Origin: Bacteroidia bacterium
GTDB lineage: Bacteria > Bacteroidota > Bacteroidia > AKYH767-A > 2013-40CM-41-45
Length of the DNA: 64,000 nt
Reading direction: 5' to 3'
NCBI GenBank assembly: GCA_038206355.1
Contig: JBBRAY010000017.1
Location: 4,364-68,363, forward strand
Shown in pieces: positions 1 to 17,469 of this stretch (positions are counted from its first letter, which is position 1; each line of letters starts with the position of its first letter). The position numbers and the translations under genes were made by a program. The notes beneath the pieces are model-generated. The model saw only the letters and a program-made list of their open reading frames with translations, had not been told where the DNA came from and did not search any database.

Positions 1-516
1 AACACGACAACCTGTGCTGTATCGACAGCATGGACGACATCAAGTTCAGTGGATCAGTTTTATACTGCCATGGATAGCGGAGCCACAATGGTCGCTTATT
101 ATGGTGGCTTCGGAATGCCAACTGTAGTTCTTGTGGGCGGACTTGATCACCGGACAATGTTTTCAACGTTGAGTTTCAGTACAAGTGATACCACCATTAT
201 GCGCGATTCTATAATGGCCCTGTATAGTCAGTTGAATGGTGTGAATCAAATCTCTTCCGTGGTTTCCCGGTTTGCGGTTTTTCCAAATCCGGCAACAGAC
301 ATGATAAATATCAATGTTGATCTGAATGAAACAACAGATCTGCTCATTGATATTGCTGATATTACAGGAAAACAAGTGGCACTTGTTATGGATGAAAAAA
401 GTAGCGGAATTGTATCTAAACAATTTGACACCAATTCTCTTGCGAATGGAAGTTACCTTGTACGATTAACTATAAATGGTAAAACCACAACAAGAAAATT
501 AACAGTCAACCATTGA
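1..516 (+). CDS. T9SS C-terminal-sorting-domain protein, 3' fragment (the reading frame is open to the window start, so the gene begins upstream)
   Basis: There is no stop between position 1 and the GTG at 49. The last ~90 aa (VFPNPATDMININVDL...GSYLVRLTINGKTTTRKLTVNH) have the FPNPA...beta-sandwich pattern of T9SS type-A sorting domains. Confidence 0.6.
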   Translation, partial: NTTTCAVSTAWTTSSSVDQFYTAMDSGATMVAYYGGFGMPTVVLVGGLDHRTMFSTLSFSTSDTTIMRDSIMALYSQLNGVNQISSVVSRFAVFPNPATDMININVDLNETTDLLIDIADITGKQVALVMDEKSSGIVSKQFDTNSLANGSYLVRLTINGKTTTRKLTVNH

Positions 517-1217
517 TTTTGAAAAAAATTCTCCAATACATACTATTATCGGTGGCCGGATTTTTTCCGGCTACCGGTAATTCTTTTGGCCAGAACTATT
601 CAATTTCTCCAAATGATTCAGTAGAAATTTCGGGAGTCTTTGAGGACCTGCAAACGCTTATCGTTAATCAAATAAATACGTCAAACGATACACTTCACTT
701 GCAGTGGGAAAAAATAGACGAAAACATTCCACTTCTCTGGGAGGCCTCTGTATGTGATAATTCATTCTGTTATTCTACGCTGGAAGAAAGCGGATACATG
801 GACCCTGTATTGCCGGGGGAGTATGGTTTTTTGCTTTTGCACATCACTCCTCATGTAAATTTCGGCACCTCAGTTATCCGTTATGCTGTATGGGATACCA
901 ATTTTCCATTGGTAAAAGACACACTCACCTATATTCTAAAGGTTGATTCAGCCAATGCAATCGGTGAAGCGGGAAAAGGGACAGGAGTGAAACTATATCC
1001 GAATCCGGCAACAAATTTTATTCACCTTACCGCCGATTGGGAATCCGGATTTTCTTATTCCATCTCTGATTTATCAGGCAAAGAAATCAATATAGGTATT
1101 GCATCCACCGGTTCCATTTCAATTCCTGCAATCAATTTTCAAAACGGAATTTACCAAATTGCAATAACCCGGAAATCAAAAACGACTACCGTTCTGAAAT
1201 TTATGATTCATCATTAA
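513..1217 (+). CDS. Secreted hypothetical protein with T9SS C-terminal sorting domain
   Basis: N-terminal hydrophobic signal-like segment. The C-terminus (KLYPNPATNFIHLTADW...GIYQIAITRKSKTTTVLKFMIHH) is T9SS sorting-domain-like. The start is uncertain (a TTG overlapping the previous stop). Confidence 0.5.
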   Translation: MILKKILQYILLSVAGFFPATGNSFGQNYSISPNDSVEISGVFEDLQTLIVNQINTSNDTLHLQWEKIDENIPLLWEASVCDNSFCYSTLEESGYMDPVLPGEYGFLLLHITPHVNFGTSVIRYAVWDTNFPLVKDTLTYILKVDSANAIGEAGKGTGVKLYPNPATNFIHLTADWESGFSYSISDLSGKEINIGIASTGSISIPAINFQNGIYQIAITRKSKTTTVLKFMIHH

Positions 1218-3411: not shown

Positions 3412-3981
3412 ATGAAAAAGAAAATAATGTTTATCAGTCTTGCATTTTGTGCATCGACACTAATTTCATGTGCCCAGGCGAAACATGAACAAAAAAGTAA
3501 AGAATCAAAGACATCCGTTGTCTTATTTGAGAACACAAATGAGGAAGTAAAGACTCAAATCAATAATCTGCTTTCGGATTATATTAAACTAAAAGACGCC
3601 CTTGTAGCCGATGATGCAAAGATGACTGCCGTCAATACAAAAGCATTCCGAAAAACACTTGAGTTGATTGAAATGAATAAAATGACCGGCGCTGAGCATA
3701 CTTACTTTATGACGATGCAACCAAAACTTGATTATGATGCAGAACATATTCAAGGAGCACCGAATATAGATCACATGCGCGAACATTTTGCAACCCTATC
3801 CGACAATTTATTTTCTCTCGTGAAAGCATTTAAAGCAAACAATGGCACTGTTATTTATCTGGATCATTGTCCGATGTACGACAAAGGCGCAAACTGGATC
3901 AGCACTGAAGAGTCGATTAGAAATCCTTATTTCGGAAAACAAATGCCTACCTGTGGCAAGGTGACTGAAACACTGAATTAG
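3412..3981 (+). CDS. Periplasmic lipoprotein, DUF3347-like (a family that recurs in Bacteroidota metal-resistance loci)
   Basis: Lipobox LISCAQ. The body is helical, with a C-terminal HCPMY...MPTCGKV cysteine/His/Met segment. The family assignment is from memory of the DUF3347 architecture, not a search. Confidence 0.45.
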   Translation: MKKKIMFISLAFCASTLISCAQAKHEQKSKESKTSVVLFENTNEEVKTQINNLLSDYIKLKDALVADDAKMTAVNTKAFRKTLELIEMNKMTGAEHTYFMTMQPKLDYDAEHIQGAPNIDHMREHFATLSDNLFSLVKAFKANNGTVIYLDHCPMYDKGANWISTEESIRNPYFGKQMPTCGKVTETLN

Positions 3982-4081: not shown

Positions 4082-6424
4082 ATGGTTCGATCGAATAGAA
4101 TATCATTCCCACGGATTTCTAAATACGGGAAAAACTTTTTGCGGCTCGTAATCACATTACAGATTATTTCTTCATATGACTTATCGGCACAAAAGGTTGT
4201 GCGATACGACCTTTTGGTAAAAGACACCATTGTTAATTTTTCGGGAAAACAAAAACGTGCCATTGCAGTGAACGGACAAATCCCAATGCCGACGCTCACA
4301 TTTACAGAAGGAGATACGGCAGAAATATATGTGCACAATGAACTGAACGAAGAAACTTCTCTTCATTGGCATGGCTTGTTTTTGCCGAATCAATTTGACG
4401 GAGTACCAAATCTTACGCAGATGCCAATCAAGGCGCATCACACCCATTTATATAGATTCCCAATCATACAAAACGGTACGCACTGGTACCATAGTCATTC
4501 AGGATTGCAGGAACAGATAGGAATGTATGGATCAATGATCCTTAATAAAAAAGAATCTGATATAACCTATCGTAATGGAATAGATGATTTACCAACAGTT
4601 CCAATTATAATCAGTGAATGGACTGATATGAATCCGAGGCAGGTTCACCGGAGATTACACAATGCCTCCGACTGGTTTGCGATAAAGAAAGGAACCACAC
4701 AAAGTTATGGAGAAGCCATCGTGCAAGGGCATTTCAAAACGAAAGTGGCCAATGAATGGAAACGCATGAATGCAATGGATGTCAGTGATGTCTACTATGA
4801 CAAATTTTTGATCAATGGTCAAAATCATTTTGCACAATCTCAATTCAAGGCTGGAGATAAGGTCCGGTTAAGAATTTCCAATGGTGGTGCTTCAGATTAT
4901 TTCTGGCTTACCTATTCCGGCGGCAGGATTACCGTGGTAGCCACTGATGGTAGTGATGTTGAACCTGTTGAGGTTGACAGACTGATCATCGCCGTTTCAG
5001 AAACCTACGATGTGATTGTTACTGTTCCTGAAAATATGAGTTATGAATTTCTGGTAACGCCCGAAGATAGAACCAAGTCAGCATCTCTTTGGCTCGGATC
5101 AGGCATGAAGATGCCGGCCACACCCTTGCCGAAGTTAAAATATTTTGCCGGAATGAAAATGATGAACGGGATGATGAAGATGAATGGCGATCTTGATGAT
5201 ATGGGAATGAAGATGAGTCTGAATCAGATGGACATGAATAATGTGATGTATCCGGAAATTACAGGAGACGGGAAAAAGAAATCTAAAACGAAATCCGAAG
5301 GTCATGACATGCACAACATGCAAATGGGTGAAGATTCAAATTCCCCGGATGCAATGAAGGATATAGTTACACTGAATTATGCAATGCTGAAATCTCCGGT
5401 TGCCACAACACTTCCATCAGATGCACCGGTGAAGGAATTATTTTTTGAACTTACCGGTAATATGAACCGCTATGTATGGAGTATAAATAATAAAGTAATT
5501 TCCGAGAAAGAAAAAATTCTGATCAGGAAAGGAGAGAATGTACGCATCATATTATACAACAACTCAATGATGCGCCATCCTATGCATTTGCATGGACATG
5601 ACTTCCGCATATTGAATGGACAAGGCGCACATGCACCGTTAAAAAATGTGTTGGACATCATGCCGATGGAAACCGATACGATTGAATTTAACGCCAATGT
5701 TTATGGCGACTGGTTTTTTCATTGCCATATCCTTTATCATATGATGAGCGGTATGGGCAGGATATTCAGTTATGAAAATCAGCCGGCTAATCCTGAAATT
5801 ACAAATCCCGGACTGGCAAAACGGAAATTTATTTCCGAAGACAGGAAATTTCATTTTATGCTGAGTGCAGGAATTGAAACAAACGGCTCCGACGGAGAGG
5901 CAATGTTTGCTAATACCAGATGGAATGCAAAAACCATGTGGCATTTGGGATTTCATTCAGGTCATGGTTATGAAAGTGAAACGATGTTTGGAAGATATTT
6001 TGGAAAAATGCAGTGGCTGTATGCATACACAGGCTTTGATTATCATTACAAGACTGATGGTCCGACGCAGAAAAATTTTGTTGATATGGAGGGAAGCCCG
6101 AAAAATATTTTCGGGAGTGAGGAAATGAACTGGTTTGGGCAACGCAGTGATAAAAATAACAGGCAGACTGCAGTTTTAGGGATTGCTTATACCCTTCCCA
6201 TGTTACTCGTTGCTGACATCAGGGTTGACCTCAATTCCAAACTTCGTTTTCAACTAGCGAGAGAAGATATACCTTTAACCAAAAGATTTCGCGGAAGCAT
6301 CATGTTGAATACGGACAAGGAATACATGATAGGCCTCCACTATATTGCAATGAAACTTATTTCACTTTCAACGCACTATGACAGCGACATGGGTTGGGGT
6401 GCGGGCTTGATGTTTACTTACTGA
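4082..6424 (+). CDS. CopA/CueO-like multicopper oxidase with a methionine-rich segment and a ~230-aa C-terminal extension resembling an outer-membrane CopB-like beta-barrel
   Basis: MCO motifs HWHGL, HWYHSH, HPMHLHGHDF and HCHILYHMMSGM are present. The Met-rich tract (GMKMPATP...GMKMMNGMMKMNGDLDDMGMKMSLNQMDMNN) is typical of periplasmic Cu-resistance CopA. The C-terminal tail has alternating hydrophobic residues and ends in an aromatic residue (..AGLMFTY). Confidence 0.75.
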   Translation: MVRSNRISFPRISKYGKNFLRLVITLQIISSYDLSAQKVVRYDLLVKDTIVNFSGKQKRAIAVNGQIPMPTLTFTEGDTAEIYVHNELNEETSLHWHGLFLPNQFDGVPNLTQMPIKAHHTHLYRFPIIQNGTHWYHSHSGLQEQIGMYGSMILNKKESDITYRNGIDDLPTVPIIISEWTDMNPRQVHRRLHNASDWFAIKKGTTQSYGEAIVQGHFKTKVANEWKRMNAMDVSDVYYDKFLINGQNHFAQSQFKAGDKVRLRISNGGASDYFWLTYSGGRITVVATDGSDVEPVEVDRLIIAVSETYDVIVTVPENMSYEFLVTPEDRTKSASLWLGSGMKMPATPLPKLKYFAGMKMMNGMMKMNGDLDDMGMKMSLNQMDMNNVMYPEITGDGKKKSKTKSEGHDMHNMQMGEDSNSPDAMKDIVTLNYAMLKSPVATTLPSDAPVKELFFELTGNMNRYVWSINNKVISEKEKILIRKGENVRIILYNNSMMRHPMHLHGHDFRILNGQGAHAPLKNVLDIMPMETDTIEFNANVYGDWFFHCHILYHMMSGMGRIFSYENQPANPEITNPGLAKRKFISEDRKFHFMLSAGIETNGSDGEAMFANTRWNAKTMWHLGFHSGHGYESETMFGRYFGKMQWLYAYTGFDYHYKTDGPTQKNFVDMEGSPKNIFGSEEMNWFGQRSDKNNRQTAVLGIAYTLPMLLVADIRVDLNSKLRFQLAREDIPLTKRFRGSIMLNTDKEYMIGLHYIAMKLISLSTHYDSDMGWGAGLMFTY

Positions 6425-6571: not shown

Positions 6572-7852
6572 ATGATTGAAAAAATAATCAGCTGGAGTAT
6601 CAGGCACCGGTACGAGGTGGTTTTGTTCACCTTGTTAACCATTGGGTTTGGCTGGTTTGCCCTAAAAAATACGCCTATTGATGCCATTCCCGATTTATCA
6701 GAAAACCAGGTAATTGTTTTTACGGAATGGATGGGACGCAGTCCGCAATTAATAGAAGACCAGGTTACCTATCCGCTTGTTTCAAATTTGCAAGGCATAC
6801 CGAAAGTAAAAAACATACGCGGCACTTCGATGTTCGGAATGAGTTTCGTTTATCTTATTTTTGAAGATGATGTGGATTTATACTGGGCACGGTCACGTGT
6901 ACTGGAGCGTTTAAATTATGCGCAGCGTTTATTGCCCGAAGGCGTAACCGCCAATCTTGGACCTGACGGCACAGGCGTTGGACATGTTTTCTGGTACACC
7001 ATAAAAGCGCCCGGTCTGGATTTAGGCGAGCAGCGTGCATTACAGGATTGGTACGTTAAGTTTGCTTTACAAACAGTTCCCGGTGTAAGTGAAGTCGCAT
7101 CATTTGGCGGATTTGAAAAACAATTTCAGATCACACTTGATCCTCACAAATTAAATTACTACAACATCCCTATGATGGATGTATTGCGCGCAGCCAAGAG
7201 TAATAACAATGATGTGGGAGGCCGTAAATTTGAAATGAGCAGCATGGCTTATATTATTCGCGGCTTAGGTTACATAAAAAATCTGGAGGATGTAGAAAAC
7301 ATTCCTGTGGGCGTTTATAATTCCGTTCCAGTAAGGATGAAAGATTTGGGAAGCGTACAGATGGGAGGCGCTTTGCGACTCGGCATATTTGATAACAACG
7401 GACAAGGCGAAGCAGTAGGAGGAATTGTGGTGATGCGTTATGGCGAAAACGCTGATAAAGTGATTAATGATGTAAAAGCAAAAATGAAAGATGTTGGCAA
7501 AGGGTTACCCGATGGTGTAACCTTTAATATTGCTTATGACAGAAGCGTGCTGATTGAAAGTGCAATGGAAACATTGAAACGAATTCTAACCGAAGAGATG
7601 ATTATCGTTTCCATTGTAATTATGATTTTTCTTTTTCACCTGCGGAGTTCCCTCATTGTAATTATCACACTACCGATTGCAATTCTCATCAGTTTTATAT
7701 TAATGTATTGGTTTAAGATTTCTTCCAACATCATGTCGCTCTCCGGAATTGCAATTGCAATAGGAGTAATTGTTGATGCCGCCATTGTGATGATTGAAAA
7801 TACACATCGTCATTTATCAGATGCACAAATAAAAAAGGAGGCTGAATTATGA
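6572..7852 (+). CDS. CusA/CzcA-family heavy-metal efflux RND permease, N-terminal 426 aa (the gene is split here by a -1 frameshift)
   Basis: The N-terminus (MIEKIISWSIRHRYEVVLFTLL...IPDLSENQVIVFTEWMGRSPQLIEDQVTYPL) is the canonical CusA start. The ORF ends in an ATGA overlap with the next ORF, which continues the same protein. Confidence 0.85.
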   Translation: MIEKIISWSIRHRYEVVLFTLLTIGFGWFALKNTPIDAIPDLSENQVIVFTEWMGRSPQLIEDQVTYPLVSNLQGIPKVKNIRGTSMFGMSFVYLIFEDDVDLYWARSRVLERLNYAQRLLPEGVTANLGPDGTGVGHVFWYTIKAPGLDLGEQRALQDWYVKFALQTVPGVSEVASFGGFEKQFQITLDPHKLNYYNIPMMDVLRAAKSNNNDVGGRKFEMSSMAYIIRGLGYIKNLEDVENIPVGVYNSVPVRMKDLGSVQMGGALRLGIFDNNGQGEAVGGIVVMRYGENADKVINDVKAKMKDVGKGLPDGVTFNIAYDRSVLIESAMETLKRILTEEMIIVSIVIMIFLFHLRSSLIVIITLPIAILISFILMYWFKISSNIMSLSGIAIAIGVIVDAAIVMIENTHRHLSDAQIKKEAEL

Positions 7853-9780
7853 ATTTGAAATTCTGGAAAAAGCAGCCCAATGATTTACTCTCTAAAGAAG
7901 AACGGAAAGCTATAATTGAAAAATCTTCTCACCAGGTTGGTCGTCCAATATTTTTCTCGACCATCATAATTGTCGTTTCTTTTTTGCCTGTATTTATGCT
8001 TACAGGAATGGAAGGGAAATTATTTCATCCGCTTGCTTATACAAAAACATTTGTATTGCTTGGCTCTGCATTGCTTGCCATCACTATCGTTCCGGTGCTG
8101 ATGATTTTATTTATGAAAGGAAAAGTAAAACCCGAAGGTAGTAATCCGGTTTCGCGTTTTTTTGAAAAATTATACGCTCCAGTTTTGCATTTATGTCTGG
8201 AATGGAAAAAAACAACACTTGCAATTAATGTTGTGGCATTAATCATCGGAATTTTTCTTACCTTGAATTTGGGTTCAGAATTTATGCCCCCGTTGGATGA
8301 AGGCTCTATTTTGCTGATGCCTGTTACCATGCCCGATGTAAGTAACTCCGAAGCAAAGCGCATCATTCAGTTGCAGGACAAAATAATCATGACCGTTCCT
8401 GAAGTGCATCATGTACTTGGTAAAGCAGGTCGTGCAAATACAGCAACCGACAATTCCCCTATCAGCATGATTGAAACAATTATTTTGCTGAAACCAAAAA
8501 CGGAATGGAGAAAAGGAATTTCGAAAGAGGATATTGTGAATGAACTGAATTCGAAATTGCAAATTCCGGGAGTAGTTAACGGCTGGACACAACCTATCAT
8601 CAACCGCATCAATATGCTTTCAACAGGAATCAGAACGGATGTGGGTTTGAAAGTATATGGTCAGAGTTTGGATACGATTTACAAACTTTCGGTGATGATG
8701 AAAAAGGAATTGGAAGATATCCGTGGCGTTAAAGATTTATATGTGGAGCCAATTACCGGAGGAAAATATCTCGACATCAAAATTAAAAAAACGGAAATAG
8801 GAAGATATGGTTTGAGTGAGAACGATGTAAACATGCTGGTGGAATCAGCATTGGGCGGAATGAACCTGACCTCTGTAATTGACGGAAGGCAACGCTTTAG
8901 TGTGAATGCACGGTTTGCACAAAACTTCCGAAACAGCATTGAAGACATCAAACGATTACTCGTCCAGACGCCTTCATATGGTCCGGTGCCCTTGAGTGCA
9001 GTAGCAGACGTTTACATTAGTGAAGGACCACCAATGATAAATTCAGAAAATGCAATGCTCCGCGGAACCGTGTTGTTCAATGTGCGCGACCGCGACCTTG
9101 GCGGCACTGTGAATGAAGCCATGAAAAAATTAAATGACATGGTGCAAAAACTTCCCAAAGGATATTACATCGAATGGAGCGGACAATGGGAAAATCAGGT
9201 GCGTGCAAACAAGCGATTGTCCATCATCATTCCACTTGCGTTGTTATCCATTTTCATACTTTTATTTTACACCTACAGATCGCTGAAAGAAGCCATTATC
9301 ACTTCCATCAGTGTTCCGTTTGCATTGATTGGCGGAGTTTATATTATTTATTTCTACGGAATTAATTTATCCGTTGCTGTTGCAGTGGGATTTATTGCAT
9401 TGCTCGGTGTTGCTGTTGAAACGGGTGTGCTCATGGTAATTTATCTGGATGAAGCAATGATAAAACTCACGGAGGAAAAAGGAAATAACCGTGAGAGTAT
9501 TACCCCGTTGGATATTCGCAAAGCCGTAGTGGCAGGCTCAGTAAAAAGATTGCGACCGAAACTAATGACGGTGGCTGCTGCAATCATGGGATTGATTCCG
9601 ATTTTATTATCGGATGCAACAGGCAGTGATGTAATGCGACCCATAGCACTGCCGATGATAGGCGGAATGGTCACTTCAGCAATACATGTACTGTTAGTTA
9701 CGCCAATTATTTTTTTACTGACAAAGGAATATGAATTTAAGAAACATGGGAAAATTGATGTGCTCAATGCCAAGCATTAA
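7849..9780 (+). CDS. CusA/CzcA-family RND permease, C-terminal 643 aa (continuation after the frameshift)
   Basis: The sequence continues colinearly with CusA (…GRPIFFSTIIIVVSFLPVF…, C-terminal TM bundle, IGGMVTSAIHVLLVTPIIF). The combined 426+643 aa is about the CusA length. Confidence 0.85.
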   Translation: MNLKFWKKQPNDLLSKEERKAIIEKSSHQVGRPIFFSTIIIVVSFLPVFMLTGMEGKLFHPLAYTKTFVLLGSALLAITIVPVLMILFMKGKVKPEGSNPVSRFFEKLYAPVLHLCLEWKKTTLAINVVALIIGIFLTLNLGSEFMPPLDEGSILLMPVTMPDVSNSEAKRIIQLQDKIIMTVPEVHHVLGKAGRANTATDNSPISMIETIILLKPKTEWRKGISKEDIVNELNSKLQIPGVVNGWTQPIINRINMLSTGIRTDVGLKVYGQSLDTIYKLSVMMKKELEDIRGVKDLYVEPITGGKYLDIKIKKTEIGRYGLSENDVNMLVESALGGMNLTSVIDGRQRFSVNARFAQNFRNSIEDIKRLLVQTPSYGPVPLSAVADVYISEGPPMINSENAMLRGTVLFNVRDRDLGGTVNEAMKKLNDMVQKLPKGYYIEWSGQWENQVRANKRLSIIIPLALLSIFILLFYTYRSLKEAIITSISVPFALIGGVYIIYFYGINLSVAVAVGFIALLGVAVETGVLMVIYLDEAMIKLTEEKGNNRESITPLDIRKAVVAGSVKRLRPKLMTVAAAIMGLIPILLSDATGSDVMRPIALPMIGGMVTSAIHVLLVTPIIFLLTKEYEFKKHGKIDVLNAKH

Positions 9781-9788
9781 TTAATAAA

Positions 9789-11024
9789 ATGAAAAAGAAT
9801 TGTGTCATCTGTATTTTGATTTTGTTTTTGGGCAGTAGTTGTCTTAAAATAAATGCACAGGTAATTTCTCTCGATTCCATTCTAACGGCTGTGGAGACAA
9901 ATTACCCGATGCTTAAAATGTATGATGAAAAAATAAAAGCACTAAACGCAAATGCCGAAGGGGCGAAGTCATGGATGCCACCGCAATTCGGGGTTGGTTT
10001 GTTTATGACACCTTACAATTTTCAAAAGGATATGGGGGCTGTTATGCTTAGCGGCGAACAAATGATTCCAAATCCGGTGAAACTATCAGCAAATAAAAAA
10101 TACATGCAAAGTATGTCGGCCGTAGAATCAGATAGTAAATCCTATTCAAAGAACCAGATGTTCGGAATGGCAAAAATGATTTACTACGATTGGGTGGTGA
10201 TGAAGATGAAAAAACTCGTGCTTACCCGGAATGAAGAACTTTTGAATTTTACCATTGCCAGTGCAGAAAACAGGTACCCCTATGGTAAAGAAAAATTAAA
10301 TAATATTTATAAAGCCAAAGCCCAATTGTATGAAGTTTATAATATGCAGTTAATGCTTGACAAAGACATTTCTCAGATGAGGATTGCACTGAACACGTTG
10401 TTGAACGTTGATAAAAATACAACGTTTGATGTAGACACCAACTTTATAATCCAAAATTATGATGTCAGCTTGGTGGATATTTCATCGTTTAAATCTTTTC
10501 GCAGTGACATCAAACTGGCAGAGTCACAAATCAGCATGATGCAATACAAACAGCAGCTTGAAAAGAATGCCCGACTTCCTGATTTTGGTATCAGGTACGA
10601 TCATATGAATACCCTGGGTAAGTCTTCTAATCTCTTTTCAATTATGGGAATGATTACCATCCCAATTGCTCCATGGTCTTCAGGTATGTACAAGGCAAAT
10701 GTGAAAGGCCTCGGATTTGAAATTCAATCCAAGCAGTTTCTAAAAGTGGACATCGTAAATGAAGCAGCCGGTAAACTGGAAGATTTGCGAATACAAATTA
10801 AATTCAAAAAACAGCAATTGATTCTTTACAGTGATAGCATATTGCCGGCTCTTAAAAACAACTATCAGATTACAATAATAGCATATGATCAAAATACCGA
10901 TGATTTATTCATGGTTCTTGACGCATGGCAAATGCTCAACATGAAAGAATTGGAATATTACGACCGTGTGGGTGAACTTTTGCAGTTGCAAGTCGGCTAT
11001 GAAAAAGAAATTGAAAAGCGATAA
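9789..11024 (+). CDS. TolC-like outer-membrane efflux channel (CusC/CzcC-type OMF)
   Basis: Signal peptide, then the typical OMF N-terminal helix (LDSILTAVETNYPMLKMYDEKIKALNANAEGAKS). About 410 aa with coiled-coil repeats. It lies between the RND permease and the adaptor genes. Confidence 0.75.
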   Translation: MKKNCVICILILFLGSSCLKINAQVISLDSILTAVETNYPMLKMYDEKIKALNANAEGAKSWMPPQFGVGLFMTPYNFQKDMGAVMLSGEQMIPNPVKLSANKKYMQSMSAVESDSKSYSKNQMFGMAKMIYYDWVVMKMKKLVLTRNEELLNFTIASAENRYPYGKEKLNNIYKAKAQLYEVYNMQLMLDKDISQMRIALNTLLNVDKNTTFDVDTNFIIQNYDVSLVDISSFKSFRSDIKLAESQISMMQYKQQLEKNARLPDFGIRYDHMNTLGKSSNLFSIMGMITIPIAPWSSGMYKANVKGLGFEIQSKQFLKVDIVNEAAGKLEDLRIQIKFKKQQLILYSDSILPALKNNYQITIIAYDQNTDDLFMVLDAWQMLNMKELEYYDRVGELLQLQVGYEKEIEKR

Positions 11025-11027
11025 AGG

Positions 11028-12320
11028 ATGATTAACAGAAAAAATAAATTAAATAAAATATTCTTCATCGTAACGATTTCAATTTCGGCGGCCTTTCTAT
11101 TTGGCTGTAATGAAAATAATTCATCACATGATGATCACAATCATTTGACTGAAAATAAAATATATACCTGCTCCATGCATCCGCAGATCATTCGAAATGC
11201 CCCAGGGAACTGCCCAATTTGCGGAATGAAGCTGATTGAAAAAACACAAGGCGTATCACTTGATGGAAACATCAACATCACTGATGTGGTAAAACCAACA
11301 GATGAATCTGTAATTTCAAATGTAAAAACTTTCACGGTAAAAGAATTGATTTTTCGACCTAAAATTACAAGTATTGGAAGTATTGAATATGACACCAGAA
11401 GATTTACAAACATTGCATCAACAATTGACGGGCGTATAGAGCATCTGTATGTTAAGTACCAATATCAGGTGATTCATAAAGGAGAAAAACTATACGATAT
11501 TTATAGTCCGGCTTTACAGACTGAAGTACAGAACTTAATTTATCTTTTAAATCATGAATCGGATAATTCCAATTTAGTTATTGCTTCAAAACTGAAATTG
11601 AAATTACTTGGTTTGTCGCATATGCAGCTTGATGAAATATCAACAAACAAACAAGCAACTGCTACCCTCAGCATTTACAGCCCGGCCGACGGATACGTTA
11701 TAGACAATTCAATGAATGTCGTTTCTTCAAATCAGTCCATGCCAATGGCTACCTTATCACAAAATAAATCTGCATCTACTAATTCTTTTTCAATGAAAGA
11801 AGGGCAGTATGTTAAACAAGGGGAAACCGTTTTTAAAGTCATCAACACACAGAAGGTTTGGGCAGTGATGAATATATATGCCGATGAAATTAATCACATT
11901 TCGAAAGGACAATCAGTAAAACTGATAATGGATAATATGCGGGATGACACGTTGATCACAAAAATTGATTTTGTGGAACCCGTGTTTGATTCCGGCAACA
12001 AATTTTTAAAGCTCCGCGCCTATCTCGATAATCCTACGGGCATGTTGATTCGCGGCAATTTATTTCACTCATATATTCAAACAGAACTCACATCAGGATT
12101 TTGGATCCCGAAATCTGCAGTGCTTGATTTAGGCAAAGAAAAAGTAGTGTATGTTCAAAATGAAAATATGTTTTATGCCCGCTTGATAACCACCGGCGCC
12201 GCCGTAAATCAGCATGTGCGTATTACTGCCGGATTACATTCAGGAGAAACAATTGCATCAAACGCACAGTATCTAATGGATAGTGAAAGTTTTATAAAAA
12301 TTAAAACACATGAAAATTAA
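11028..12320 (+). CDS. RND periplasmic adaptor (CusB-like membrane fusion protein) with an N-terminal CxxC heavy-metal-binding domain
   Basis: Lipobox FLFGCNEN. The motif YTCSMHPQIIRNAPGNCPICGMKL matches the YxCPMHP...CPxCGM metal-binding domain found at CusB N-termini. The rest is a membrane-fusion-protein beta-barrel/lipoyl-like body. Confidence 0.8.
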   Translation: MINRKNKLNKIFFIVTISISAAFLFGCNENNSSHDDHNHLTENKIYTCSMHPQIIRNAPGNCPICGMKLIEKTQGVSLDGNINITDVVKPTDESVISNVKTFTVKELIFRPKITSIGSIEYDTRRFTNIASTIDGRIEHLYVKYQYQVIHKGEKLYDIYSPALQTEVQNLIYLLNHESDNSNLVIASKLKLKLLGLSHMQLDEISTNKQATATLSIYSPADGYVIDNSMNVVSSNQSMPMATLSQNKSASTNSFSMKEGQYVKQGETVFKVINTQKVWAVMNIYADEINHISKGQSVKLIMDNMRDDTLITKIDFVEPVFDSGNKFLKLRAYLDNPTGMLIRGNLFHSYIQTELTSGFWIPKSAVLDLGKEKVVYVQNENMFYARLITTGAAVNQHVRITAGLHSGETIASNAQYLMDSESFIKIKTHEN

Positions 12321-13413
12321 TATACTGCCACTTTTTTTTCTTCTAATATTATTTTCCTGTAATAAAAACAAGGAAAAGCAAATGAATATGACGGAAGAAG
12401 AACACAGCTCAATGAACAAATTTATATTCAGTGAAGCACAACTGAAACTCGCCAACATTAAGGTGGAATCAATTGAAATGAAAAACATTTCGGAAGAAAT
12501 ACTATTAACCGGAAAGATCGTACCTGATGAAAATAATGCCACTCAAATCAATTCCCGAATCATGGGGCGAATTGATAAGTTGTATTTCAAATACGCAGGA
12601 GAAAGTATCCATAAAGGAAATTTACTATTTGAAATTTATAGTGAAGATTTAATGGTCGCTCAGCGAGATTATTTGCTTGCCCTGCAGCAAACAGAAAACA
12701 AATCTTATAACCACGAATACCTGAAACAGCTAAAAACATCTTCAAAAAACAAGTTAATTCTTTGGGGCTTGACTGAATTGCAGCTTGCTGAACTGGAAAA
12801 AACCAAAAAAATAAATTCAACTACAAATATTTACAGTGATGTCAGCGGCATCATAACCGATGTAACGGTACGCGAAGGAGATTATGTAATGGAGGGCACC
12901 CCTGTATATAAACTAAATGATCTGTCATCGCTTTGGGTGGAAGCTCAATTGTATTCCAATGAACTGCAATCGGTAAAAAAAAATACAGAAGCAGAAATAA
13001 TAGTTGATGGTTTCACCAATCAAAGTCTAAAGACGAAAATTTCATTTATCAATCCCGAACTGAACAACAACAGTATTGTAAATATCGTCCGTGCAGGAAT
13101 TCCAAATGCTGATTATAAATTAAAACCCGGCATGATGGCAACTATCCGAATAAAAACAAAATCAAAAAATGCTTTGGTGCTCCCGGTAGATGCAGTACTT
13201 CAGGAACCGGATGGTAGTTCGGTATGGGTACAAAATAGCGATGGATCATTTAAGAATAAAATGGTAATGACAGGCATCAGAAATAAAAACGAACTGGAAA
13301 TAACGATGGGATTGAATGCCGGTGAGAAAGTTGTGGTAAGCGGGGCCTATCTCATCAACAGCGAATTCAGACTCAAGCAAGATTCAGATCCAATGGCAGG
13401 AATGAAAATGTAA
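12310..13413 (+). CDS. Second RND periplasmic adaptor (membrane fusion protein paralog) lacking the metal-binding module
   Basis: Lipobox LFSCNKN. It has the hairpin/lipoyl/beta-barrel organisation of a membrane fusion protein and a Met-rich C-terminus (DPMAGMKM). It overlaps the upstream adaptor gene by 11 nt. Confidence 0.7.
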   Translation: MKINILPLFFLLILFSCNKNKEKQMNMTEEEHSSMNKFIFSEAQLKLANIKVESIEMKNISEEILLTGKIVPDENNATQINSRIMGRIDKLYFKYAGESIHKGNLLFEIYSEDLMVAQRDYLLALQQTENKSYNHEYLKQLKTSSKNKLILWGLTELQLAELEKTKKINSTTNIYSDVSGIITDVTVREGDYVMEGTPVYKLNDLSSLWVEAQLYSNELQSVKKNTEAEIIVDGFTNQSLKTKISFINPELNNNSIVNIVRAGIPNADYKLKPGMMATIRIKTKSKNALVLPVDAVLQEPDGSSVWVQNSDGSFKNKMVMTGIRNKNELEITMGLNAGEKVVVSGAYLINSEFRLKQDSDPMAGMKM

Positions 13414-13510
13414 ATTGAAAAAACAATAATATTTCCTCAAGAAAATATTAATTTGTCAAATAGAATGATTAAAATAACCTATTTTCATTAATTCAAAACT
13501 CAAAATAACC

Positions 13511-13780
13511 ATGAGAAAATCAAACATCATTTTAACGGCAGCATTTGCTTTAATGCTTTGCGCCTGCAGTACTTCATCCAACAAGAATGAACAATCAAAT
13601 GCTACTGATAGCGCTGGAGTTCAAAGTACGGCCATGGAACAAATTTTTAATCTGGATACCACAATCCTGGCAAGTGGAGCAACATTTTATCAGTGTGAAA
13701 TGGATCCCGAAGTTCTTTCAGACAATCCCGGTAGTTGTCCTAAATGCGGAATGTATCTATCGGCGCGTAAGAAAAATTAA
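13511..13780 (+). CDS. Small lipoprotein carrying a variant CxxC heavy-metal-binding domain
   Basis: Lipobox LMLCACS. The C-terminus (FYQCEMDPEVLSDNPGSCPKCGMYL) is a variant of the YxCPMHPE..CPxCGM module. Confidence 0.6.
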   Translation: MRKSNIILTAAFALMLCACSTSSNKNEQSNATDSAGVQSTAMEQIFNLDTTILASGATFYQCEMDPEVLSDNPGSCPKCGMYLSARKKN

Positions 13781-13886
13781 AGAGCTCCCAAACGCAAATG
13801 TATTCGATATGGATCCATTGAAAAAGATGATGCTTGCATCCTCGCAATTACTCTTATAAACGCAACAAGCGCTAAAAAATAAACCG

Positions 13887-14099
13887 GTGGAAAGTAACCT
13901 TATTCTGAATGCTGTAATTAAATGTCCGGTTTGTGGTTTCAGCAAAATAGAAATAATGCCGGTTGATGCCTGTCAGTACTTTTATGAATGTGAAAATTGC
14001 AAAACCATCCTCAAACCTAAGCCCCGTGATTGCTGCGTTTATTGCAGTTATGGATCAGTAAAATGTCCTTCAAAACAGGAAGGAAAAAGTTGTTGCTAA
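13887..14099 (+). CDS. GDCCVxC-family small cysteine-rich metal-binding protein
   Basis: 70 aa with CPVCGF, CENCK, PRDCCVYC and a C-terminal KSCC. The RDCCVYC core matches the GDCCVxC domain signature seen in heavy-metal loci. Confidence 0.55.
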   Translation: MESNLILNAVIKCPVCGFSKIEIMPVDACQYFYECENCKTILKPKPRDCCVYCSYGSVKCPSKQEGKSCC

Positions 14100-14721
14100 A
14101 CTAATCAGTTTAAACTTGAAATAGCATAGAATAAAAACCACCGGAATACATCGGGAAAACATTTTGGAAACGAAAGCTGAAAATGAAGTAAGTTGACTTT
14201 AAACTTACATCAAAATTTCAATATACTTTTAAGAACTATTTTACTTACGAATTTACATAAGTGTTATTGATGTCTTTATATTCTGAACGAGTCAACCTTT
14301 AATATGAGAAAGATCATCTCAATGAATGACAAAAGTCAGATAAATAAGATTCCGCTATTTCCATATTTACTACACAAAAGATGTACAAATCCCTGAATAG
14401 AAATTGATGTCTGGATGCCGATCAATGGAAGGAATATTTTACTTCATAATATGTGCATTATAACCAACTGAAAATGTCGGCGCATTACATCAGGAGCAAA
14501 TTTTGCCCCATGCAAGTGAATGCGTTTACACCTTCTGCATTGAATGGAAATATTCAGATCGACAACGTTTTAATGCGAAAGTCATTTATAGAAACTTTCT
14601 CCGGCTTACAGTCCTGACATATGAATTATGTAACTATTTCCAATAATTATATAATGCCCTTCATTAAAAAAAAAGGATCTTTGATGAAAGTAAAATCATT
14701 TAAATATTAAACACAAATAAA

Positions 14722-14835
14722 ATGATGAACGAACATTCATGGGGTTGGGGAATGGGTTATGGTATGTGGATCATTCCAATTATACTTCTCATTATTGTTG
14801 TCTTTACTTTAAGAAACAGACGGAGAAAAAAATAA
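14722..14835 (+). CDS. Possible 37-aa single-pass membrane mini-protein (MMNEHSWGWGMGYGMWIIPIILLIIVVFTLRNRRRKK)
   Basis: It is the only coding-like ORF in an 840-bp gap. It has a strongly hydrophobic core followed by a basic tail. It lies just upstream of the Met-rich chaperone gene and is below the ORF-track length cutoff. Confidence 0.25.
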   Translation: MMNEHSWGWGMGYGMWIIPIILLIIVVFTLRNRRRKK

Positions 14836-14937
14836 TAAGACTGTATTAATTTTTAATGACGCAATATACATCCGGGCGACAGCGATACTGAAGAGCGGGT
14901 AACAGCGCCTCTGAAATATATTTAAACTAAATTTAAA

Positions 14938-15399
14938 ATGAAAAACAAAAAAATGATTGCCGCCATGTTTGCTTCAATGCTCATGCTGGTTGTATGCATT
15001 ACTTCAGGTAATTCTTTTGCACAAACCAAGACCGATTCTACAATGATGAAAGATTGCTGTTTGATGAAGGATGGTAAAATGATGCAAATGATGGACGGCA
15101 AAATGATGCCAATGGAAAAAGACATGACCATGAAAAATGGAACCATGTGTATGACCAATGGCGAATGTGTGATGAAAGATGGAACAAAGATGATGATGAA
15201 AGATGGAGATTGTATGGACATGAGTGGCAAGATGGATAATTGCGCCATGATGATGAAAGGTTCAAAAAGTGGAACCAAAATGGAAAGTGATAAAAAGGAT
15301 GTGGCTATGACTTACACTTGCCCAATGCATCCCGAAGTTACAAGTGACAAAGCAGGGAAATGCCCGAAATGCGGAATGGATCTGATGGAGAAGAAGTAA
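14938..15399 (+). CDS. Secreted Met/Cys-rich copper-binding protein with degenerate MKDG(K)MM repeats and a C-terminal CxxC metal-binding domain
   Basis: Signal peptide. About 75 aa contain >25 Met plus Cys pairs (MMKDCCLMKDGKMMQMMDGKMMPMEKDMTMKNGTMCMTNGECVMKDGTKMMMKDGDCMDMSGKMDNCAMMMKG). The C-terminus (YTCPMHPEVTSDKAGKCPKCGMDL) is the canonical metal-binding motif. Confidence 0.7.
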   Translation: MKNKKMIAAMFASMLMLVVCITSGNSFAQTKTDSTMMKDCCLMKDGKMMQMMDGKMMPMEKDMTMKNGTMCMTNGECVMKDGTKMMMKDGDCMDMSGKMDNCAMMMKGSKSGTKMESDKKDVAMTYTCPMHPEVTSDKAGKCPKCGMDLMEKK

Positions 15400-15420: not shown

Positions 15421-17469
15421 ATGAATATGACGCATACGGATCACTCAAAGATGAATCATTCGGAACACGGGAATGTTCCAATGGGAATGGCAGGTCATAA
15501 TCATCACAAAATGATGATTGATGATTTCAAGCGACGATTTTATGTGACGCTTGTCATTACCCTTCCTGTCATGCTGCTTTCGCCAATGATTCAGCATTGG
15601 TTCCATTTCACCATTGCGTTTCCCGGGTCAACTTATTTACTATTCGGCCTCTCAACTGTTGTCTTTTTTTATGGCGGGCTGCCTTTCCTGAAAGGAATCG
15701 TTGATGAACTAAAACAGAAAACGCCCGGCATGATGACATTGATCGCAGTGGCTATTACTACTGCCTATGCCTACAGCGTTGCTACCGTTTTTGGCTTACA
15801 TGGGATGGATTTTTTCTGGGAACTCTGTACCTTGATCTTAATCATGTTACTTGGGCACTGGATTGAAATGAAATCCGTAGCAGGAGCTTCGAAAGAACTG
15901 GAACTCCTCGTGCAACTTATGCCTTCTGATGCACATATGATTATGCCGGCCCACAAAGGTTCAGGCGCCGGTGAAATGATACATGAAGTAAAAACAGATT
16001 CACTGAAAGAAGGTGACCTGATTTTAATTAAGCCCGGAGAAAAAGTTGCTGCAGATGGAATCATTTCCCACGGAGAAAGCTACCTGAATGAATCCATGCT
16101 CACCGGAGAATCTGTCCCCGTAAAAAAGAACAAGGGAGAAAAAGTTATTGCAGGATCTATCAATGGCAATGGCTCATTAAAAGTTACGGTGAGTCATTCA
16201 TCAAAAGACTCCTATCTTTCACGCGTAATCAAACTGGTGAATGACGCACAAAAAGCAAAATCAAAAACCCAGCTACTCGTTGATAAGGCAGCACAGATAC
16301 TTACCATCGTTGCACTCGCATCAGGTTTTGCTACATTTTTTTTCTGGTGGTTAATTGCTAAGGAAACACCTGTATTTGCCATTGAGAGAATGGTAACTGT
16401 GATCGTAATCTGCTGCCCGCATGCACTTGGGCTTGCAGTACCATTGGTGGTTGCAATCTCAACATCACTATCTGCTAAAAACGGCCTGCTTATAAAAAAC
16501 AGAACGTCTTTTGAGAATGCAAGGAAAATTACCACCGTCATATTTGACAAAACAGGAACACTCACTTATGGAAAGTTTGAAGTGGCAAGAATAAAAATCT
16601 TAAAACCGGGGCTGGATGAAAAAGAAATCATCCGCATTTCAGCAGCACTCGAACAAAACTCTGAACATCCGATCGCAACAGGAATCATTGCAAAAGCTAA
16701 AGAATTTTCACTTAACATTCCCACGGTAAATAATTTCAGGGCCATCACAGGAAAAGGAATAGAAGCTGAGTTGGAAGGGAAGAATGTCAAAGTTGTAAGT
16801 CCGGGTTATTTACGTGAGAAAAACATTCATTTACCTGACAATGATTCCGGGACCGCTGCCGAAACCATTGTATTTGTTATTGTCAATGATGAGTTGACCG
16901 GATACATTTCACTGGCAGATAAAATCAGACCTGAATCAGCAGAAGCAATTAAAATACTCCATGAAAACAATATCAAATCCATTTTACTCACCGGTGACAA
17001 TGCAAAAGTTGCAAAGAGTGTAAGTGATGAATTAAAAATGGATGGCTTCTTTGCTGAAGTATTACCACATCAAAAACTTGAAAAAATAAAAGAGTTGCAA
17101 AGCAAAGGTGAGTTCATTGCTATGACAGGCGACGGAGTAAACGATGCGCCTGCACTGGCTCAGGCAGATATCGGAATTGCAGTTGGCAGTGGCAGCGACA
17201 TTGCAGCAGAAACCGCGGGAATCGTTCTTGTCAACAGCAATCCAAAAGACATTTCAAGTCTGATCCTTTTTGGAAAAGCTACCTACAGAAAAATGATTCA
17301 GAATTTAATCTGGGCGACAGGATACAATGTCATCGCACTTCCTTTGGCTGCAGGCGTGCTTTACAAATGGGGAATAATGCTGAGTCCGGCGGCAGGAGCA
17401 GTACTGATGAGCGTTAGTACAATCGTTGTTGCCATTAATGCAAAAATGCTTCGGGTTACAAATAAATGA
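15421..17469 (+). CDS. Heavy-metal-translocating P1B-type ATPase, CPH-type (P1B-3/CopB-like) with a His-rich N-terminus
   Basis: His-rich MNMTHTDHSKMNHSEHGNVPMGMAGHNHHKMM N-terminus. TM6 carries CPH (VICCPHALGLAVP) rather than CPC. DKTGTLT, TGDN and GDGVNDAPAL motifs are present. No ferredoxin-like GMxCxxC N-terminal domain. Confidence 0.9.
   Translation: MNMTHTDHSKMNHSEHGNVPMGMAGHNHHKMMIDDFKRRFYVTLVITLPVMLLSPMIQHWFHFTIAFPGSTYLLFGLSTVVFFYGGLPFLKGIVDELKQKTPGMMTLIAVAITTAYAYSVATVFGLHGMDFFWELCTLILIMLLGHWIEMKSVAGASKELELLVQLMPSDAHMIMPAHKGSGAGEMIHEVKTDSLKEGDLILIKPGEKVAADGIISHGESYLNESMLTGESVPVKKNKGEKVIAGSINGNGSLKVTVSHSSKDSYLSRVIKLVNDAQKAKSKTQLLVDKAAQILTIVALASGFATFFFWWLIAKETPVFAIERMVTVIVICCPHALGLAVPLVVAISTSLSAKNGLLIKNRTSFENARKITTVIFDKTGTLTYGKFEVARIKILKPGLDEKEIIRISAALEQNSEHPIATGIIAKAKEFSLNIPTVNNFRAITGKGIEAELEGKNVKVVSPGYLREKNIHLPDNDSGTAAETIVFVIVNDELTGYISLADKIRPESAEAIKILHENNIKSILLTGDNAKVAKSVSDELKMDGFFAEVLPHQKLEKIKELQSKGEFIAMTGDGVNDAPALAQADIGIAVGSGSDIAAETAGIVLVNSNPKDISSLILFGKATYRKMIQNLIWATGYNVIALPLAAGVLYKWGIMLSPAAGAVLMSVSTIVVAINAKMLRVTNK

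Follow-up and report, generated by a model that had tools for sequence, protein, structure and literature searches.

A DUF6799–HMBD fusion protein in a copper island of a Bacteroidia bacterium: a putative periplasmic Cu(I)/Ag(I)-handling protein

The window analysed here is a stretch of 64,000 nucleotides from a Bacteroidia bacterium (contig JBBRAY010000017.1 of assembly GCA_038206355.1, positions 4,364 to 68,363 of the forward strand), and the subject of this report is one of its genes, an open reading frame (ORF) at 14938..15399 on the + strand that starts with ATG and encodes 153 aa plus a stop. The product, identical to a protein in a public collection (P0001), consists of a predicted signal peptide, a tract rich in Met and Cys that belongs to the Pfam family DUF6799, a flexible linker and a C-terminal HMBD (Table 1). 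The gene lies within an island of copper genes, 21 bp upstream of, and on the same strand as, a gene for a P1B-type ATPase. The protein is built of two already catalogued Pfam domains and resembles in kind the Met-rich periplasmic Cu(I) proteins; the repeat that it carries is not new, the family being catalogued but uncharacterised, and NCBI already labels relatives as 'DUF6799 domain-containing protein'.

Table 1. Features of the DUF6799–HMBD protein and genes of the surrounding copper island (positions are those of the window)
Feature	Position (nt)	Strand	Position (aa)	Evidence
Predicted Sec (signal peptidase I) signal peptide, cleavage between SFA and QTK	14938..15021	+	1-28	Read from sequence
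Met/Cys-rich beta-hairpin tract	15043..15255	+	36-106	PF20606 match, AlphaFold2, conserved residues, Tandem Repeats Finder arrays
DUF6799 core	15049-15234	+	38-99	Pfam
Lys/Ser-rich flexible linker	15244..15300	+	103-121	AlphaFold2 pLDDT <50
HMBD, YTC128-P-M130-H131 ... C142-P-K-C145-G-M147	15313..15393	+	126-152	PF19335
Copper P1B-type ATPase, CPH-motif, CopB-like	15421..17469	+		TIGR01511 E 4e-175
CopA-like multicopper oxidase	4082..6424	+		TIGR01480 E 1.2e-112
CusA/CzcA-type RND pump, two overlapping ORFs (6572-7852, 7849-9780)	6572..9780	+		TIGR00914
Outer-membrane efflux (TolC-like) component	9789..11024	+		Pfam OEP E 6.8e-18
CusB-like periplasmic adaptor lipoprotein	11028..12320	+		Pfam HlyD_D23 E 4.7e-44, HMBD E 4.1e-14, lipobox LFGC
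Second CusB-like adaptor, without HMBD	12310..13413	+		Pfam HlyD_D23 E 3.2e-59
HMBD lipoprotein, 89 aa, the island's third periplasmic HMBD	13511..13780	+		Pfam HMBD E 1.6e-8, signal/lipobox-like N-terminus

A striking property of the protein is its content of Met. Between aa 36 and 115, its best 80-aa stretch, 25 of the 80 residues (31%) are Met and six are Cys; against a Met background of 2.9%, taken from stop-free segments of at least 200 aa in the window, the binomial P for the tract is ~4e-19, and it is the Met-richest 80-aa stretch when all six frames of the window are compared. A preliminary description of the gene, made from the nucleotide sequence alone, had reported about nine degenerate units with more than 30% Met in 80 aa and had proposed a tandem-repeat search. 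That description holds up: at the protein level, eight or nine units of 6 to 8 aa each are centred on D/N-G turns (at positions 40, 46, 54, 68, 75, 82, 90 and 97), and Tandem Repeats Finder reports a 24-nt array of 2.1 copies at 15064-15114 (85% matches) and a 21-22-nt array of 3.5 copies at 15130-15207 (72% matches). Because Met has a single codon, the nucleotide similarity between the units is mostly forced. Variation in the number of repeats, which the same description had proposed to survey across strains, was not found: the number of hairpin units is constant among homologs and only whole-domain copies vary (two DUF6799 domains in the proteins P0002 and P0004, three at the locus L023). 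What look like repeat units are strands and turns within a conserved domain of fixed length, not a variable low-complexity tract.

The match of the tract to Pfam DUF6799 (PF20606) covers the whole profile (positions 1-63 of 63; aa 38-99), with an E-value of 1.9e-23 and 82.4 bits against a gathering cut-off of 26.8; in a scan of NCBIfam, no model matched the protein. Homologs number 1067 among the 5.8 billion proteins searched; of the 120 listed, nearly all are of about 150 aa and share the DUF6799+HMBD architecture, at 56-100% identity. The homologs span the Chitinophagales, Flavobacteriales and Sphingobacteriales; carriers, mostly metagenome-assembled genomes, include Chitinophagales, Flavobacterium, Ferruginibacter, Segetibacter, Sphingobacteriales, Hymenobacter and Pedobacter, and the full-length relatives in reference genomes are all Bacteroidota. 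Conservation was read from alignments of 26 and 91 sequences and, for the percentages, across 91-122 sequences at 63-81% identity. Met 43, 48, 59, 65, 79, 87 and 95 and about ten further Met residues are invariant or more than 90% conserved, for a total of about 15-20 near-invariant Met, and the same degree of conservation applies to Gly 46, 54, 68, 75, 82, 90 and 97 and to Cys 40, 41, 71, 77, 92 and 102. The seven Gly residues, part of a pattern of D/N-G turns spaced 7-8 residues apart, are also kept, at 86-98%, in 243 DUF6799 domains drawn from clusters at 50% identity. AlphaFold2, run with the 91-sequence alignment, predicts an all-beta protein in which residues 40-100 form six short strands arranged in hairpins (predicted local confidence, pLDDT, 85-92), and in which the HMBD has a pLDDT of 74-89.

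To survey the wider family, a full HMMER scan was run against 1.84 billion representatives with a query limited to the DUF6799 part. It found 1119 clusters (at 50% identity) at E <= 1e-3, 180 of them at E <= 1e-10; members carry one to seven copies of a domain of about 64 residues, with a Met content that ranges from 2% to 27% per protein. The fusion to an HMBD is the exception, being present in only 8 of 146 representative DUF6799 proteins. The commonest two-Cys pattern in DUF6799 domains is C40 with C92; C71 and C77 co-occur (phi 0.71), whereas C102 is found almost only together with C92. Domains with at least two of these Cys residues are richer in Met (a fraction of 0.22, vs 0.13).

The N-terminus of the protein reads as an n-region (MKNKK) followed by a hydrophobic core that leads to A28/Q29, and both residues at this predicted cleavage site are invariant or near-invariant among homologs. 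Substrates of signal peptidase I in Bacteroidota favour an N-terminal Gln after cleavage. A lipoprotein anchor was considered and rejected, as C20 is not conserved and the residues that precede it do not form a lipobox. The mature protein is predicted to be soluble and periplasmic, in line with the export proposed in the preliminary description. The linker that separates the DUF6799 domain from the HMBD differs in length and sequence among homologs.

The C-terminal CxxC module noted in the preliminary description turns out to be an HMBD (PF19335), matched with an E-value of 7.5e-16 and 58.2 bits against a gathering cut-off of 23.6; C128, M130, H131, C142, C145 and M147 are invariant or more than 90% conserved among homologs. 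In profile searches the module matches the N-terminal domain of Legionella CopA (LpCopA; PDB 8ovl, E 2.6e-9; also 3rfu), and Foldseek superimposes the two with a target TM of 0.75, an rmsd of 0.9 over 30 columns and a probability of 1.00, the accompanying E-value of 0.097 being due to the tiny size of the domain. A nuclear magnetic resonance study of the LpCopA domain (PDB 8OVL) showed that Ag+, as a mimic of Cu+, is held in a three-sulfur site by M44, C59 and M61 (PMC11970713). LpCopA residues C42, M44, H45, C56, C59 and M61 align with C128, M130, H131, C142, C145 and M147, so that the three ligands correspond to M130, C145 and M147, all of which are conserved; both the M/C/M ligands and the C/H/C framework are kept within the C-terminal 28 residues of the window protein. 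We regard the module as a clear member of the PF19335 family and, from its sequence, as a putative Cu(I)/Ag(I) module. The two proteins differ in that the LpCopA module is cytoplasmic and N-terminal to the pump, whereas the HMBD described here is predicted to be secreted, is C-terminal and is fused to DUF6799. Moreover, the HMBD of LpCopA is described as a copper sensor that relieves autoinhibition, not as a delivery site (PMC11970713). A literature search for PF19335 turned up a single paper that cites it, on an HMA-like plastid chaperone, which was of no help here.

The genomic setting also points to copper. No terminator-like site was found in the 21-bp gap between the DUF6799–HMBD gene and that of the ATPase, which is probably its operon partner. 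The ATPase itself has a His/Met-rich N-terminus and the motifs 'CCPH' and 'MSVST', and is without an HMA domain or HMBD. We examined 21 distinct related loci that carry the DUF6799–HMBD fusion, scoring neighbours within 6 kb. A P1B ATPase and/or a multicopper oxidase was present at 17 of the 21, and at 13 the gene of the ATPase was the immediate same-strand neighbour, on the upstream or the downstream side; orthologs of the CopA-like oxidase of the island flank the gene at many of these loci. Cys-bearing DUF6799 proteins without an HMBD also occur in copper contexts: one, at L023, adjoins an HMA protein, and another, with five Cys, is flanked by a CusA homolog on one side and a P1B ATPase on the other in the cultured Hymenobacter terricola 3F2 (L024, 5746-7525). 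As a separate observation, the ATPase at the latter locus seems to be broken up into several ORFs that lack the central part of the enzyme.

With a probability that we put at roughly 60%, the DUF6799–HMBD protein is a Sec-exported, soluble periplasmic protein that handles Cu(I)/Ag(I) and relays copper in Bacteroidota; the broader statement, that it belongs to periplasmic copper handling in this phylum, is very probably correct. Directly in support are the domain identities, the conservation, the predicted fold, the preservation of the HMBD ligands and the synteny, and from these we infer that the protein is exported, that one or other domain binds metal, how many sites there are, which partners are involved and which way the copper moves. 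The protein would present a rigid beta-hairpin domain of about 64 residues with strands lined by Met, in many M-x-M pairs, and with six conserved Cys; the HMBD, tethered by a disordered linker of about 20 residues, would hold a single Cu(I) through the sulfur atoms of Met130, Cys145 and Met147, in a trigonal arrangement. Cytoplasmic Cu(I) expelled into the periplasm by the co-transcribed CopB-type ATPase would be captured by the tethered HMBD and the Met/Cys hairpin domain, whose thioether-rich chemistry should tolerate the oxidising environment. By ligand exchange, Cu(I) could then reach the HMBD of the CusB-like adaptor or that of the 89-aa lipoprotein and be exported by CusCBA; alternatively, or in addition, it could be handed over to the multicopper oxidases for oxidation. 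The adaptor is a candidate recipient, its HMBD being N-terminal (aa 46-72, nt 11163-11243), and the CopA-like oxidase a possible one.

This reading departs in part from the preliminary description. The copper setting proposed there is borne out by the 21-bp spacing and by the related loci, but the protein had been thought to feed the adjacent ATPase; since P1B pumps load Cu(I) from the cytoplasm, transfer from the ATPase to the protein is the more plausible direction and the protein is better seen as an acceptor. As for the high-capacity sponge also suggested there, the abundance of Met stands, but not the assumption that all Met are free ligands, as many occupy hydrophobic positions of the scaffold. 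Finally, the contrast drawn with CusF was overstated: M-x-M pairs abound in the tract, and the ligands of CusF are spaced in this way.

One close parallel is CusF, the periplasmic Cu(I)/Ag(I) chaperone of CusCFBA in E. coli. It takes up periplasmic Cu(I), including Cu(I) delivered by a P1B ATPase, and passes it to an N-terminal site of CusB (Bagai 2008; Mealman 2012; Padilla-Benavides 2014; as cited in PMC4335983). The proposed role, the M-x-M thioether motif and the encoding of the gene with a pump are common to both proteins, and the window protein would fill the role that CusF has in E. coli, in a different fold. CusF is an OB-fold protein whose one metal site, His-Met-Met, is capped by a Trp, whereas the window protein has a different predicted fold, six Cys and an added HMBD; and while CusB of the E. 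coli system uses a Met triad, the CusB-like partner in the island carries an HMBD instead. The window protein is not itself a CusF: there was no Pfam hit to CusF, there is no His or Trp in the tract and no CusF was among the Foldseek hits. Neither is it of the HMA/CopZ type, which has a ferredoxin-like HMA domain with GMxCxxC: there was no hit to PF00403, and the predicted model is all-beta. Among the ORFs of the island that were scanned, no CusF, CopC or HMA (CopZ-type) protein was found. The tract also recalls PcoE/SilE and the inserts of the CopA/PcoA/CueO oxidases, which are likewise periplasmic and Met-rich and serve to buffer Cu(I)/Ag(I) or to recruit it. All these segments are rich in both His and Met, disordered or helical on binding, and have M-x-x-M or M-x-x-H spacing; the DUF6799 tract, in contrast, is free of His, contains Cys and is predicted to fold into a beta-hairpin domain whose length is fixed.

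A second parallel is CopK of Cupriavidus metallidurans (PF11525; PDB 2K0Q and 3DSO), a periplasmic protein that holds Cu(I) in an all-Met tetrathioether site (Sarret 2010; Chong 2009; as cited in PMC4335983). When the PDB was searched by sequence with hmmsearch, the DUF6799 part had CopK as its top hit (E 0.021 with a profile of close relatives, 0.081 with a diverse profile of 56 domains). In the reverse direction, Pfam DUF6799 matched CopK with an E-value of 9e-4, at 19.4 bits, a score below its cut-off; the CopK model was not hit when the DUF6799 part was scanned against Pfam at E-values up to 10, a scan that yielded only DUF6799. When CopK was shuffled 2000 times, 0 and 1 of the shuffles reached the real score with the two profiles, and the similarity thus depends on residue order and exceeds that expected from composition. 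Both proteins are small, secreted, largely beta and encoded in copper-resistance loci, and they share hairpin motifs of the form 'F/M-K-D-G-K-M-x-M ... G-K-x-M-x-M ... D-G-T-K'. Of the residues that we take to form the four-Met site of CopK (M28, M38, M44 and M54), three align with the conserved M49, M59 and M63 and the fourth with T73, beside M72, in an alignment that is unreliable. CopK differs in that it has seven Met and lacks both Cys and an HMBD, and it belongs to a very small family of 16 clusters, in which Cupriavidus is the sole genus among those named. Homology with CopK was not adopted, given hhalign probabilities of at most 68%, shifting registers and no Foldseek match, and CopK is kept as an analogue and a lead. 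A bolder proposal, in which DUF6799 is an unrecognised and widespread Cu(I)-thioether fold, CopK a divergent and truncated member of it and the window version a multi-site relay that replaces CusF, is in our view doubtful.

Several observations weigh against the proposed relay of copper. Four of the 21 fusion loci have no copper neighbour, three of these with a truncated flank. More pointedly, six Met-rich DUF6799 proteins without an HMBD (18-29% Met), chosen as controls on contigs of 0.5-6.5 Mb, had no copper-efflux or oxidase homolog within 7 kb, whether by Pfam listing or by tblastn. In Met-poor relatives, V, L, I, F or Y take the place of the best-conserved Met; many of the Met therefore take hydrophobic positions of the scaffold, and may be core residues instead of ligands. 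The pairing of the Cys residues is as compatible with structural disulfides as with metal sites. The DUF6799 part gave no significant Foldseek match in the PDB, and a literature search found no paper that names DUF6799 or PF20606. As to CopK, hhalign gave a probability of 38% for the single sequence and 67.7% for a 14-member CopK family over 25 columns, and the aligned register differed from test to test, over 13-25 columns. The six controls show that Met-richness alone does not mark a copper locus; it is the subgroup of HMBD-fused and Cys-rich DUF6799 proteins that goes with copper genes.

Alternatively, metal may be handled by the HMBD only, with DUF6799 acting as a generic periplasmic beta-hairpin scaffold, spacer or interaction module in which Met serve as hydrophobic residues and Cys form disulfides. 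We treat this as a serious possibility, if well short of a probable one. It accommodates the standalone Met-rich genes in non-copper contexts (six of six long contigs), the aliphatic or aromatic residues that replace the conserved Met in Met-poor members, the correlated Cys pairs and the presence of one to seven domain copies per protein, as in a modular scaffold. It accounts less readily for the extra Met that lie beyond the scaffold positions (36, 37, 42, 51, 56, 57, 85, 86, 104 and 105), for the higher Met fraction of the Cys-bearing domains or for the Cys-rich DUF6799 proteins that stand in copper loci without an HMBD (L023 and L024), and the order-dependent similarity to CopK and the MKM-NG-type tracts in the oxidase of the island also speak for a role of the tract in metal handling.

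Two further explanations appear improbable. According to the first, the Met-rich domain would be a sacrificial antioxidant, with surface Met that scavenge hypochlorous acid (HOCl) or reactive oxygen and are repaired by methionine sulfoxide reductases. Surface Met is indeed very abundant, copper stress produces periplasmic oxidants and one standalone homolog (L088) is encoded near genes for superoxide dismutase, rubredoxin and flavodoxin; however, no Msr or MsrPQ genes were found beside it, either here or at the other loci that were looked at, and metal handling is the likelier role for a domain that is fused to an HMBD and encoded in tight linkage with a copper ATPase. The second, to which we give equally little credence, is a periplasmic metal-sensing accessory that would modulate a sensor kinase or the pump, by analogy with CopM of copMRS. 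Two of the six standalone genes (L086 and L087) are followed by genes for an OmpR-type response regulator and a histidine kinase, and the HMBD of LpCopA acts as a copper sensor (PMC11970713); but no two-component system was found among the scanned ORFs of the island or of the fusion locus L001, where the flanking genes found are those of the ATPase and/or oxidase. Last, the tract might be low-complexity drift peculiar to a strain, an outcome for which the preliminary description had allowed, or the ORF might be spurious. The biased composition and an overlapping antisense ORF of 118 aa could lend colour to this view, but it is refuted by conservation, since homologs keep the repeat in fixed length and register (63-81% identity in the 91-sequence alignment drawn from the 1067 homologs) and the tract has a curated Pfam match and a confidently predicted fold.

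Two of the six standalone DUF6799 genes are preceded by a gene for a beta-propeller of about 410 aa (PF10282); the intervals that hold the propeller and/or the two-component pair are L086 7001-10650, L087 5709-9542 and L089 5738-7312.

Periplasmic copper handling is poorly described in the Bacteroidota, a dominant phylum of soil, water and gut. Were the DUF6799–HMBD protein a true carrier, it would link P1B ATPases, HMBD-bearing CusB adaptors and multicopper oxidases in these bacteria, it would provide a first function for a Pfam domain of unknown function with more than 1,000 sequence clusters, and its folded, Met-lined beta-hairpin scaffold, possibly related to CopK, would join the few known thioether copper sites. 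Should DUF6799 be a general thioether fold, the many Met-rich members outside copper islands might be soft-metal buffers or sensors. If metal binding is limited to the HMBD, the significance is more modest, and the protein would be another secreted HMBD chaperone.

Other genes of the island merit a brief account. The RND pump is split: its halves match TIGR00914 positions 1-431 (E 1e-139) and 421-1039 (E 8e-187), lie in different frames and overlap by ATGA at 7849-7852, just past a run of six A residues (~7831-7836), and the homolog at L012 is one continuous frame. The split could be a frameshift, a pseudogene, a sequencing error or a genuine division of the protein. The CopA-like oxidase contains a Met-rich insert (aa 336-415, nt 5087-5326; 17 Met in 80 aa, 'GMKMMNGMMKMNG...MGMKM'), the M-K-M / N-G character of which resembles the DUF6799 tract. 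A second multicopper oxidase (1218-2948, +) ends in a sorting domain of the type IX secretion system (Por_Secre_tail), an indication that this copper oxidase is secreted or sits on the cell surface; upstream of it, the small proteins encoded at 49-516 (+) and 513-1217 (+) share the same domain.

Between the genes of the HMBD lipoprotein and the DUF6799–HMBD protein lies one for a Cys-rich protein of 70 aa with a GDCCVxC domain (13887-14099, +; NF041374, E 9e-28), a copy of which, 72% identical, is found at another copper locus (L027, 2533-2727). A DUF3347 protein is encoded in the island at 3412-3981 (+), and another directly downstream of the ATPase at L001 (12036-12545); DUF3347 proteins may be a recurrent, uncharacterised component of the copper islands of Bacteroidota. 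The DUF6799–HMBD gene is preceded by an unusually long stretch of about 840 bp without a sizeable ORF (14100-14937). An Rfam scan of this gap gave nothing above noise (best E 0.62), and a scan for sigma-70 promoters and terminators, a model unsuited to Bacteroidota promoters, did no better than on shuffled sequence (13 hits vs 10.5 expected). A small ORF of 36-37 aa at 14722-14835 (+), predicted to form a single helix ('MMNEHSWGWGMGYGMW...LRNRRRKK') and without a Pfam family, is kept at 47-50% identity beside DUF6799 and copper genes at three other loci (L001 7294-7377, L004 3026-3121 and L023 5250-5360), and may be an unannotated small membrane protein of copper islands.

A tblastn search of the PLSDB plasmids gave matches to the HMBD only, the low-complexity filter probably masking the Met tract. 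At L001, the closest relative on a long contig, the island comprises genes for HMA, HMBD and cytochrome c proteins, the DUF6799–HMBD protein, the ATPase and the DUF3347 protein; genes for a phage-type integrase and an HTH_17 protein come next (12931-15094), a hint that this copper island is mobile.

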